A stretch of DNA of 61,504 nucleotides, counting the filler. It is 10 parts of 10 records of this genome, joined end to end, with 100 filler letters (N's around TTAATTAATTAA, not from the genome) between each part and the next. Parts side by side here need not be neighbours in the genome. Positions count along the whole stretch, not along the records: positions 8,241 to 13,896 come from SRR15195285_7320; 9 more parts are not named here. One strand, 5' to 3'. Position 1 is the stretch's first letter. Each line of letters opens with the position of its first letter. The notes beneath the pieces were generated by a model, which worked only from the letters and a program-made list of their open reading frames with translations, was not told the DNA's origin and made no database searches. This document shows positions 11,017 through 13,896 of this stretch, one piece after another. Position numbers and translations under genes: made by a program.

Positions 11017-13896
11017 TTACGGTTGCGATGAAGGATGGTCGACCTTCATCTCAATCTTCTCTGCAGCCAGACGCATCTCCTCACTCACACGCAGTTGTTT
11101 CTGGTCCTTGTCGTTGCGGACCCTCGGTGGCGGCGTTGACGACCTCTTTGGTGGAGTTGCTGAACGGTCAGCGGTCAGCGGTCTCTTTGGTGGAGTTCCT
11201 GACCGTGCTGCAACGGTCAAACTTGCGCTTTCGATGGCCATCCCGCTGCGGACACTCAGCGTTGATTCAGCAGGTACTGGTTCCTCTCCCTGCCTCCTTG
11301 CCTTCGACTGTTCGGTTTCGGACTCGAGAGCTCTACCCACCACCTTAAAGGCACGCGACGCTCGCGTCTTGACTGTGTCAAACATCTCCAGGAACTCCGT
11401 CACATCGAGAAAGCCGTTTTGGTCCTTATCCATTATGTCCCAAGCTCCATCTAGCCAGCTTGAATCTACATCATACCCTTTGGATCGAAAGAAACTCAGC
11501 GCCTCCTCCTTTGACACCTCACCGTTGCCGTCCGTGTCCACATCCTCAACGCTATCATCGGCATCAGCATCGGCATCAGCATCAGCGGGTACTGGTTCAC
11601 CCATGGGTTCCGCCGAGCTGGACGGCACCGACTCCAAGATGTAGCTCTTGCGCACAAACGCATTGGAGTAGACCAGCGCAGTTCCGGTGCTGCTGTCATC
11701 CGGCATCAACAGCGACTCAGGGATGGTCATCTGCTTGCTGATGCTGATGGCCATACCGTCTACCACAACGCTCGACGGCAATCCCATGACCAGCACCGCC
11801 TGCAGCTCGCCCACATGCTCATCGCGCCAACCGGCTCCCCACAGCGCCTCGCCGGCCGTATCCTTAAATTTGCCTCCCGCATACTTCTGCCAGTTGAGAT
11901 CAGTCGGCGATAACGTCGTGACCGTCCGTCCGGCGTCTAGGCCACAGCCGCTCTCACACATCCTTCGCGCAGCTTCTTCCGAGCAGTAGTGATACACAAT
12001 CGTGTACGACCGCATCTCTGCCTGGTCGATTGCGATTAGTGCAGCCTTCATCTCGTTCTTCGTGAATCTAGCAACGTTTTCTGGCCAATGTTTCGTGCTT
12101 GGATTGGCCTCCTGGAACATGCGGTGCCGCTCCAGGTAGATCTGAGATGGGTCGTCCAGCCTGGCGGGTATGCAGGCCGTAAACTTGACAATCGAGTCGC
12201 ACCATGGCGTCTTTGCGTTCGGCCTCGCCTCGTCGCGTACACGGCTGTCAACAGCAATACTGGCCAGTTGGACCTGTGTCATTGCCCCGTGCTCGTCTCT
12301 ATCAGACGAGCACTGCACCCGAGCGTTGACATTCTCCTTCGTGATACTATCGAGCACAGGCACGTAGTCTGGGTCTGGTGGCTTGAGCAGCAGGACCTTC
12401 TCGATGGTCTTGTTCGAGAGATACCTTGCCCCATCTGCTTCGTTGAGAATGCATTCGCCTTGCGGCACGATGAATACACCATCCCTTCCCGGCAGAATGC
12501 GACGCGGATCCCTGTTCTCTTTGGACGGTATTCGCAGTACCAGGCACACTTCTAGTTTCTTGGACAAAGATCCCCACTCGTCTCTTGCCGCTGGCAAGGT
12601 CCCTGCCCACTCCTTGGACTCAATCTTCTTCTCCAGGTCTAGCGGCGGATCTCCAGACATCACCTCGTACCATTTGTCACCTGTTTTCACATCAACACGG
12701 AACGCGTTTGCAATTCAATCTATTGTGGACAAAACAGCTTTGATTTACCAAGGATAACATTTCTTGCTGGGTGTCCAGTGAGAACATGAAAACTGAAAAG
12801 CAATTTACCCCACAGTGCATCTCCACAGCCCTTGCGGAATGCAGCTGGCCCAAGTCTGTCCCAGCCGAGGTCGACCGGACTTGCCAACGCGATGCTCACA
12901 CCACCTGCACAAACGTGTGGTTGAGTTTCTATAGTTGTCCCAAGCTTGCTTTGGCAACGATCATCGTTCACAGGCAAGTTTTAACAGAAAGAGAGCTGTC
13001 GCACCGCCTAGCTGACCGACCGTGCTGGCTCGAATTCCAAGCGAGCCCAAAATCAGCCGGCACGAATCTAGGTCGGTGAAATGGTACCCGAGCGAGTGTG
13101 ACTTCGGTAGTTCCGACTCCATCTGTTTGAACAAGGACGACATCTGCTCCTTCGACAAGTGCGAAGCAACCTCCAGATCATTCCAGAGCCGCATTCCCGC
13201 GCGCTGATGTTCGTTTTGTACTGCCAACTCGTTTGTGATGTAGTCGGCGAGATCTTTGGTCTCGCTCCCGGTAGTAAGTCCGAGCCGGAAGCGCTCAAAG
13301 GTGAAACGCATTCGCGTCTGCTTGTCGCTTTGAGCTTCGGCAGTTTGGGCCGCATGCCGCAGAGTCTGCTTCACCATTCTCAGTTTTCTTGCTATCGTGA
13401 GAACGAACATTCCTGGCACGCATATAATGAAGGTGGACATGAGGAGCCAGTCGTATGGCCGCCTGCGATCGGCGATATCCTCAGTGTACATGCGAAAGGC
13501 ATCTTCACCTTCTGTTCCAAAGTAGGCTCCCTTGGTTGAGTCCATGTCCGTGCGAAAGACCAATGCCACAGCGATCGTCAGGCACGTATGAACCTCTGTC
13601 GCCGCTCGCAGGTGGTTGTCTGCGTCAAACTTGTATGGCCAGCTTTTCATGTGGCGACACAGAAACGCAAGCGCGAGACCTAGGCCGATTATAGTCTGTG
13701 TGACAGAACCACGTTGCACGAATACAAGACCGCCGACAAGTGCCAACTTGCGCAGCATATCCAGCGACTCAGCCATGAAGAACTTCGGCTTGAAGGCGTC
13801 AGTGAGGAAGCCATAGGCAGAACCCATGACGATGTCGTTGACTGCGGCCTCAGCTTCGCCCATACTGATGTGAAAAGCCTCACTGACATGGGCCTT
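11017..13896 (-). CDS. Multi-pass membrane protein with two tandem ADP-ribosyltransferase-like (HYD1-type) modules and an EF-hand pair; 5' partial
   Basis: TM block FKPKFFMAESLDMLRKLALVGGLVFV..WPYKFDADNHL. Introns 12905-13004 and 12681-12808 join three ORFs in frame. Internal duplication YHFTD..SPVDLGW..ALWG vs YHYCS..SPTDLNW..ALWG. EF-hands DTDGNGEVSKEE and DKDQNGFLDVTE. Confidence 0.75.
12905..13004 (-). mobile_element. Introner-like spliceosomal intron (100 nt)
   Basis: GTGCG...CAG intron whose core aligns by eye with the unrelated intron at 51149-51252. Confidence 0.6.

Follow-up and report, generated by a model that had tools for sequence, protein, structure and literature searches.

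Two short introns in unrelated genes of a COSAG02-type picozoan as probable copies of one introner-like element

Introduction

Introners are, to our knowledge, the one process known to produce intron gain in bursts. The introner elements of Micromonas pusilla and Aureococcus anophagefferens were reportedly described in 2016 by Huff, Zilberman and Roy as non-autonomous DNA transposons. Surveys have since listed 548 families in 175 genomes (Gozashti et al. 2022, PMC9860276) and, later, 1,093 families in 201 species (Gozashti et al. 2025, PMC12130899). According to the first survey, the working criterion on copy number is at least five copies per genome; about 59% of the families judged had target-site duplications, terminal inverted repeats or both, neither being obligatory; and the introner-like elements of fungi are read as RNA-based, spreading by reverse splicing (PMC9860276). 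Here we analyse a stretch of DNA of 61.5 kb (the window), in which an earlier note had proposed that two introns of about 100 nt, one on each of two contigs, belong to an introner-like family.

Picozoa are uncultured organisms related to red algae and are known only from single cells and metagenomes. The organism of the window is, judging from its proteins, a COSAG02-type picozoan, because a myosin encoded at 25736-30634 (plus strand) matches a EukProt COSAG02 protein at 100% identity throughout the part searched (motor region, residues 30-720, 691 residues) and because every named homologue of the gene that hosts one of the two introns (host gene 1, below) is a COSAG protein. The window is made of ten separate contigs, with spacers of the form N44-TTAATTAATTAA-N44 at 8141-8240, at 13897-13996 and at seven further places; distances and synteny across them are meaningless. 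Both introns belong to one family. We give a probability of about 0.72 to the reading that they are diverged copies of one short element dispersed in picozoans, an introner.

Results

Two alike introns and their copies elsewhere

The two introns, and the 24-nt core that is the best-conserved part of each, are located as follows.

12905..13004, minus strand: intron 1, 100 nt, GTGCGA...GTGCAG, phase 1 in a Gly codon (G|GT); a diverged copy of the element in forward orientation.
12934..12957, minus strand: core of intron 1, 24 nt, with 21 of 24 consensus bases; translation LPKQAWDN; located by the fuzzy core search.
51149..51252, plus strand: intron 2, 104 nt, GTGCGG...TCTTAG, phase 1 in a Gly codon (G|GA); a diverged copy of the element in forward orientation.
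51197..51220, plus strand: core of intron 2, 24 nt, with 21 of 24 consensus bases; translation LPRQARDK.

On re-reading the sequence, the coordinates, lengths and ends given in the earlier note proved exact, as did the placing of the introns on different contigs. Both are indeed in phase 1 within a Gly codon, which is read from the sequence and fixed by colinear homologues, and both have CGTTT at 7-8 nt from the 3' end. The alignment of their cores at 34 of 47 columns, made by eye, was exactly reproduced; its longest exact word is 6 nt. The labels ART-like and GH141-like that had been given to the two genes found no support in Pfam, which gives only EF-hand and Beta_helix.

When the introns were compared with dinucleotide shuffles, the score of the pair was reached by 1 of 5,000 with the scoring scheme 2/-3/-5/-2 and by 0 of 5,000 with 1/-1/-2/-1. 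Single-sequence nhmmer searches of the entire window returned each intron as the best non-self match of the other, but only at E=0.23 and E=0.073. We assembled a set of 29 introns with an exon-chain gene finder, at a setting that recovers all eight homology-supported introns and places none inside long open reading frames (ORFs); the set consists of these eight and of 21 introns that are predicted only, after nine weak predictions bridging two genes had been dropped. Among its 406 pairs, introns 1 and 2 rank top (27 against 23 for the next pair, and 21 against 16), and the best pair of the antisense control scores 25 and 16. The likeness of the pair, taken alone, is thus suggestive and not conclusive; an extreme-value estimate puts the family-wise chance between a few percent and 15%. 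The GTGCG start is not specific, since it is found in 7 of the 29 predicted introns, and neither is phase 1 in a Gly codon with its G|G junction (4 of the 8 homology-supported introns). Searches of the window by blastn-short, by a hidden Markov model (HMM) of the two sequences, by single-sequence nhmmer and by a fuzzy search for the core brought up no third copy; marginal candidates near 59711, 8493 and 37151 were rejected, being located in coding-looking sequence. The predicted intron 59496-59578 (plus strand) has arms, i.e., the parts on either side of the core, that are as close to the family as those of introns 1 and 2, and it has no core. Speculatively, it may be a core-less relic.

Judged from sequence, the question of whether the pair forms one family is settled by copies elsewhere, not by the pair alone. 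We scanned metagenome contigs with one pattern, the positions common to both window cores (TTGCCANNGCAAGCNNGNGACAA, 18 fixed bases), and obtained 15 loci, roughly the chance expectation. Four of these are genuine (L003, L005, L008 and L014), and the other 11 (L001, L002, L004, L006, L007, L009-L013 and L015) were discarded as unrelated chance matches. L003 is described below with host gene 1. The contigs L005, L008 and L014 are 1.1-1.3 kb long, come from one metagenome with record names that have a common prefix, and give several matches each to the two-intron model. They are parts of genes broken by GT..AG introns, and the removal of two, three and four introns opens 296, ~210 (stop-terminated) and 168 codons, respectively. 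The element is in all ten introns of the three contigs (nine complete, one cut), i.e., ten copies in 3.5 kb, of which seven are forward and three reversed (L014_4, L008_B and L005_Y); both window copies are forward.

Because the pattern was derived from the two window introns, we built an independent HMM only from the seven metagenome copies that were not picked up by the pattern itself. When run on both strands of the window at E<=10, this model gives exactly two matches, 51173-51248 (E=4.1e-7) and 12996-12915 (E=1.9e-5), both on the sense strand of the introns, and the two window copies cover model positions 16-102 and 31-117 of 125. The HMM searches found no copy outside introns in the window or the loci, where little intergenic DNA is present. 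A 20-base core pattern matched nowhere in 596 Gb of prokaryote genomes, nor in the viral contigs. The proposal of an introner-like family in unrelated genes is supported by copies in two genes of the window and in three other genes (those of L005, L008 and L014), together with the match of the independent model to both introns.

Anatomy of the element

In a multiple alignment made in element orientation, the copies align end to end, from the 5' to the 3' splice site. The parts follow one another as a splice-site end, a left arm (TTTTC...TGTGAA.ACGAT), the core, a right arm, AAAAG.CGTTT and the other splice-site end. The consensus of the 24-nt core is TTGCCAAG(G/A)CA(A/G)GCTCGGGACAAA. The right arm has a branch-site-like (C)AAGGAAACT(A/G/C)AAC and then AAAAG.CGTTT, which is the CGTTT flagged in both window introns. 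The termini in element orientation are [G/C]TG.G... and ...C.CA[G/C], and the ends on the sense strand are GTGNG...(C)GCAG in either orientation. The element is about 105-130 nt long, and the introns that bear it measure 100-139 nt, except one with tandem cores.

The arms are similar even after the core and the 6-nt splice ends are taken away (left z=11.3, right z=9.3; 0 of 300 shuffles reach the sums). Over 106 shared columns, the window copies are 52% and 60% identical to the metagenome copies, which are 57% identical to one another. One intron has two cores and another has three, with a period of 29 nt: in L014:108-246 two cores are joined by a perfect palindrome, GACAAACGATCGTTTGTC, and in L014:356-542 each of the three tandem cores is in a different frame. 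The three core changes of intron 2 are all synonymous, but coding constraint on the core was rejected, as a hand count across the copies, of about 8 synonymous versus 14 non-synonymous changes, is near the neutral expectation.

Read-through peptides and the lineages that carry them

In one frame the consensus core translates as LPRQARDK, and intron 2 reads exactly LPRQARDK. A core-frame profile, made from 11 copies, was searched against 1.84 billion representative proteins. It matched 815 protein clusters at E<=1e-3, of which 77 reach E<=1e-10, and in many of them the match comprises 2-4 stretches. There are 178 occurrences of LPRQARDK in the top 150 proteins, within ...F..HF.LK.II-LPRQARDK-HRES..K.... 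In 155 motif windows from these proteins, the information is above background over ~36 residues (~105-115 nt) and zero on both sides, and a conserved block of this length matches the intron sizes of 100-139 nt. Short Pfam fragments of 16 domain kinds are found in 19 of the 150 top proteins; the kinds beside the motif include enolase, Myb, EF-hand, WD40, aminotransferase, ion channels, GH31, GH127 and beta-lactamase. Single exons between introns that had been read through would be expected to leave this pattern. Hundreds of 'hypothetical proteins' in public protein sets, among them P0018-P0167, are read-through translations of the element, e.g., ...FLRHFILKMIILPRQARDKHRESTQK..., with ..YQDRLGTN.. 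and ..AKTGSGQT.. in other frames. A search for element peptides among the homologues of both host genes, 17 in all, found none.

We looked up 25 of the clusters. Six hold a protein of EukProt Picozoa_sp_COSAG06, and the remainder are unnamed JGI/ENA metagenome proteins; no other taxon label was found among the 25, and the COSAG02 label is on none of them. The earlier note had mentioned PRQARDK as a peptide recurring in predicted proteins of Picozoa, which is borne out by the clusters matched by the LPRQARDK profile and by their COSAG06 members. The lineages contrast in their load: the element is in 2 of the ~29 introns of the window (COSAG02-type), whereas it is abundant in a sister lineage, the COSAG06-type picozoans, and on the three metagenome contigs.

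The host genes and the two insertion sites

The remaining parts of the two host genes are given below.

13005..13896, minus strand: upstream exon of host gene 1, truncated where the contig stops, with ...GIRASTVGQLG as its last residues and no Pfam family.
12809..12904, minus strand: exon of host gene 1 between its introns, 32 codons, placed by tblastn with homologues and by protein colinearity.
12681..12808, minus strand: second intron of host gene 1, 128 nt, GTAAAT..ACAG, phase 1; without the element and with no match to the family HMM.
11020..12680, minus strand: downstream exon of host gene 1, which holds the EF-hand (Pfam) and was placed by tblastn.
49787-49853, 50006-50086, 50717-50786, 50855-50923 and 50947-51049, plus strand: five other short introns of host gene 2 (beta-helix), without the element, placed by colinearity with P0017 and all found by the gene finder.
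51253..51965, plus strand: exon of host gene 2 downstream of intron 2, from sequence and homologue colinearity.

The reading frames are restored on removing the copies, and the homologues are colinear and uninterrupted at both sites. Host gene 1 has 16 homologues, and all 11 that were inspected are unbroken at the site of intron 1 (GQLGGGVS). They read ...GIRASTVGQLGGGVS...LWG(S/D)KW... across the site, and the window matches this only after the removal of the 100 nt and of the intron 12808..12681. P0002 is an uninterrupted homologue whose cluster holds COSAG06 members. The sole long homologue of host gene 2, P0017, is colinear across intron 2 (LVNAGEW versus LVNGGNW; LVNAGEWTLDHDDG versus LVNGGNWPLDHDDG). 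In the same gene, 50947-51049 is a GC-AG intron with a GCAAGT donor, the removal of which rebuilds a Trp codon, T|GG (NTWDRGPY versus NSWDRSPF in the homologue).

The metagenome contig L003 carries the orthologue of host gene 1 from a relative, with exons ~80% identical to those of the window. It retains intron 1 with 2 changes per 100 nt and the second intron at 74.5% identity. Between L003:1-1800 and window positions 13125-11600 the identity is a mosaic, with a block of ~270 nt around intron 1 at 96-98% and the remainder of the gene at 75-83%; this could result from recombination or gene conversion between lineages or paralogues, or from a chimeric contig. Constraint on intron 1, considered on account of its 98% identity in L003, was rejected, since the flanking exon bases are equally similar (95.9%) and the whole is a locally similar block. 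At the contig end, L003:2371-2514 (minus strand) has a sub-threshold Rfam match to isrG (36.7 bits versus a gathering threshold of 100, E=3.8e-7), which is probably compositional.

The description of the family as old and decaying held in part. It agrees with the 21 of 24 core bases kept, the weak similarity of the arms, the lack of inverted ends in the two introns and the presence of intron 1 in a relative with ~80% identical exons; against it, the divergence of the window copies does not exceed that among the metagenome copies.

Other features of the window

Other genes of the window encode CFAP69, myotubularin, a MoxR-like AAA protein and EGF repeats. Introns are spread very unevenly. In the beta-helix gene there are six, of 67-104 nt, within 1.5 kb (49787-51252), in contrast to the myosin, EF-hand and EGF-repeat ORFs (25736-30634, 36560-40663 and 40765-44748), which have 1,328-1,633 codons and 0 predicted introns. 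At 53404-53442, many unrelated contigs of all four runs stack over ~35 nt (depth up to 577, run X1), with loose ends on both sides; this stretch is a repeated or widely conserved short motif.

Discussion

We favour an introner because the element, in the family taken together, extends over whole introns, fills every intron of three contigs and occurs in both orientations, and because homologues are uninterrupted at both window sites. Such an element, small and non-autonomous, would enter coding sequence at the DNA level, lying either way round, and, with sense-strand ends that are the same in both cases, would be removed by the spliceosome as an ordinary intron. Its insertion would have created the introns rather than entered older ones, and its movement would be DNA-based; the reversed copies favour insertion at the DNA level and disfavour reverse splicing. 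The core may be recognised by the mobilising or the splicing machinery, which is a guess.

A number of observations weigh against an introner. There are only two copies in the 61.5 kb of the window, and intron 1, being shared with the relative L003, is not a recent gain. Only one RNA-library contig spans intron 2 (run X14, 50723-51307), and it is unspliced; among the RNA and DNA contigs on the 13-kb contig at 44850-57882, no run joins across any intron. The X14 contig is probably genomic DNA or pre-mRNA, because three neighbouring introns are also retained in it. The DNA depth of run X1 over intron 2 is 3.9 versus mostly 6-10 in adjacent bins; as it is not raised, there is no sign in this run of recent near-identical (>=85%) copies of intron 2. 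The homologues without the introns are uninterrupted ORF calls, which are biased to intron-free forms, and they are also without the introns that bear no element. The remaining points of this kind concern the arms, the ends and the flanks of the copies, and they bear directly on the main rival.

This rival, which we consider unlikely, is a short dispersed repeat, either a core of 24-30 nt or a small miniature inverted-repeat transposable element (MITE), that settled in older introns while its insertions in exons were purged by selection. The mean pairwise identity of 78% in the core and 45-46% in the arms would allow the core alone to be the repeated unit, and the two or three tandem cores found within single introns also favour this rival, but the arms are significantly alike without the core and the GTGNG..GCAG sense ends are there in both orientations. 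Some other introns of the window have arms at least as near to the family as those of introns 1 and 2: among the 29 left arms theirs rank 4 and 3 and are not outliers, and among the right arms that of intron 1 ranks first and that of intron 2 is average. A repeat in older introns would nevertheless have to account for the presence of the element in all ten introns of L005, L008 and L014 and for the narrow range of intron sizes (the tandem-core intron apart), which equals the length of the conserved block. The inverted ends are weak. Their sum over 11 copies is 79 versus 66.5+-4.2, which 9 of 2,000 shuffles reach; 3 of the 11 copies have p<0.05, and there are none in intron 1 (p=0.72) or intron 2 (p=0.94). 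No target-site duplication is demonstrable, as the flanks of the copies share only G|G and nothing >2 nt. G|G is no proof of duplication because it is indistinguishable from the usual exon-junction consensus, and such a flank pattern is classed as ambiguous between duplication and site preference in the first survey (PMC9860276). The occurrence of intron 1 in a diverged relative also fits an older intron. That no copy was seen outside introns counts against a repeat of this kind, with the little intergenic DNA present.

A functional intronic RNA motif under selection (a splicing enhancer, a protein-binding site or a small structured RNA) is improbable. The core is far more conserved than the arms and is partly self-complementary (TTGCC..GGCAA, TTTGTC..GACAAA), but 3 of the 10 copies are reversed, which an RNA motif would not tolerate, and 27 of the 29 predicted introns of the window are without the core. 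Intron 1 folds no better than its shuffles (z=+1.2) and intron 2 only mildly better (z=-1.8), and the stems predicted in the two are not at aligned positions. No Rfam family accounts for the element: with Rfam 15, the best matches over the introns have 9-14 bits versus gathering thresholds of 50-78, and none falls on the element in L005, L008 and L014. Chance resemblance on top of species-wide intron signals, very improbable by now, could explain the pairwise nhmmer values (E 0.07-0.23) and the GTGCG starts, G|G junctions and T-rich 3' ends that are common among introns here, but it is removed by the independent HMM, which matches only introns 1 and 2 (E=4e-7 and 2e-5), and it also runs counter to the top rank of the pair and to a core that recurs in hundreds of proteins and is absent from the prokaryote DNA searched.

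A more specific form of the introner reading is doubtful, and we put it forward tentatively. The functional heart of the picozoan introner would be its internal 24-nt core, independent of orientation and capable of tandem arrangement, and the element would have burst in COSAG06-type picozoans and left relics in COSAG02-type ones. If this were true, the burst in the COSAG06 type would leave exons of ~110-145 nt, and the COSAG02 type would keep intron-free ORFs of up to 1,633 codons. The two lineages would then be a natural before/after pair for intron invasion, and mobilisation would be unlike classical inverted-repeat transposition.

These results add a probable introner family in Picozoa and suggest that two picozoan lineages differ sharply in their intron load. 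At least 815 public protein clusters contain translated element (e.g., ...FLRHFILKxIILPRQARDKHRES...); these are annotation artefacts and can pollute phylogenomic proteomes. As a simple marker, the core can serve to find picozoan DNA and to mask these introns. In the literature searched, no paper was found with both 'introner' and 'Picozoa', nor any with PRQARDK, and the supplementary tables of the surveys may still list a picozoan or TARA genome. Among the matches listed for Picozoa and introns, none is on intron families, as judged from the listing.

How, then, does the element compare with known systems? It is small, non-coding and dispersed, occurs in both orientations and has some inverted-repeat signal, and its ends coincide with splice sites; no autonomous partner turned up. 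MITEs are recognised by clear terminal inverted repeats inside a fixed-length target-site duplication, whereas this element has a weak inverted-repeat signal and no duplication >2 nt. The fungal introner-like elements, as described in the first survey (PMC9860276), resemble it in being ~100 nt long, without clear target-site duplications or inverted repeats, and strongly genic; unlike them, it has 3 of 10 copies reversed, which reverse splicing into transcripts would not yield. Like the introners of Micromonas and Aureococcus, compared here by description only, it is small and non-coding, and it would supply or recruit splice sites and make many introns in picoplankton. Those families are reported in the first survey to have clear target-site duplications and inverted repeats (PMC9860276), in contrast to the weak inverted-repeat signal of the picozoan element. 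From the surveyed introners in general it differs in having a core sequence of its own, in that its best-kept part is this internal, tandem-capable 24-nt core and not the termini, and in that neither target-site duplications nor terminal inverted repeats can be demonstrated from 12 DNA copies. It is like them in forming similar introns at unrelated positions in unrelated genes, in being a short unit within the reported 30-654 nt median range, in occurring in the same and the opposite orientation with GC below that of exons, in having an aquatic host and in leaving message length unchanged on removal (PMC9860276, PMC12130899). The comparison supports a new introner family in Picozoa, an element of a known kind.

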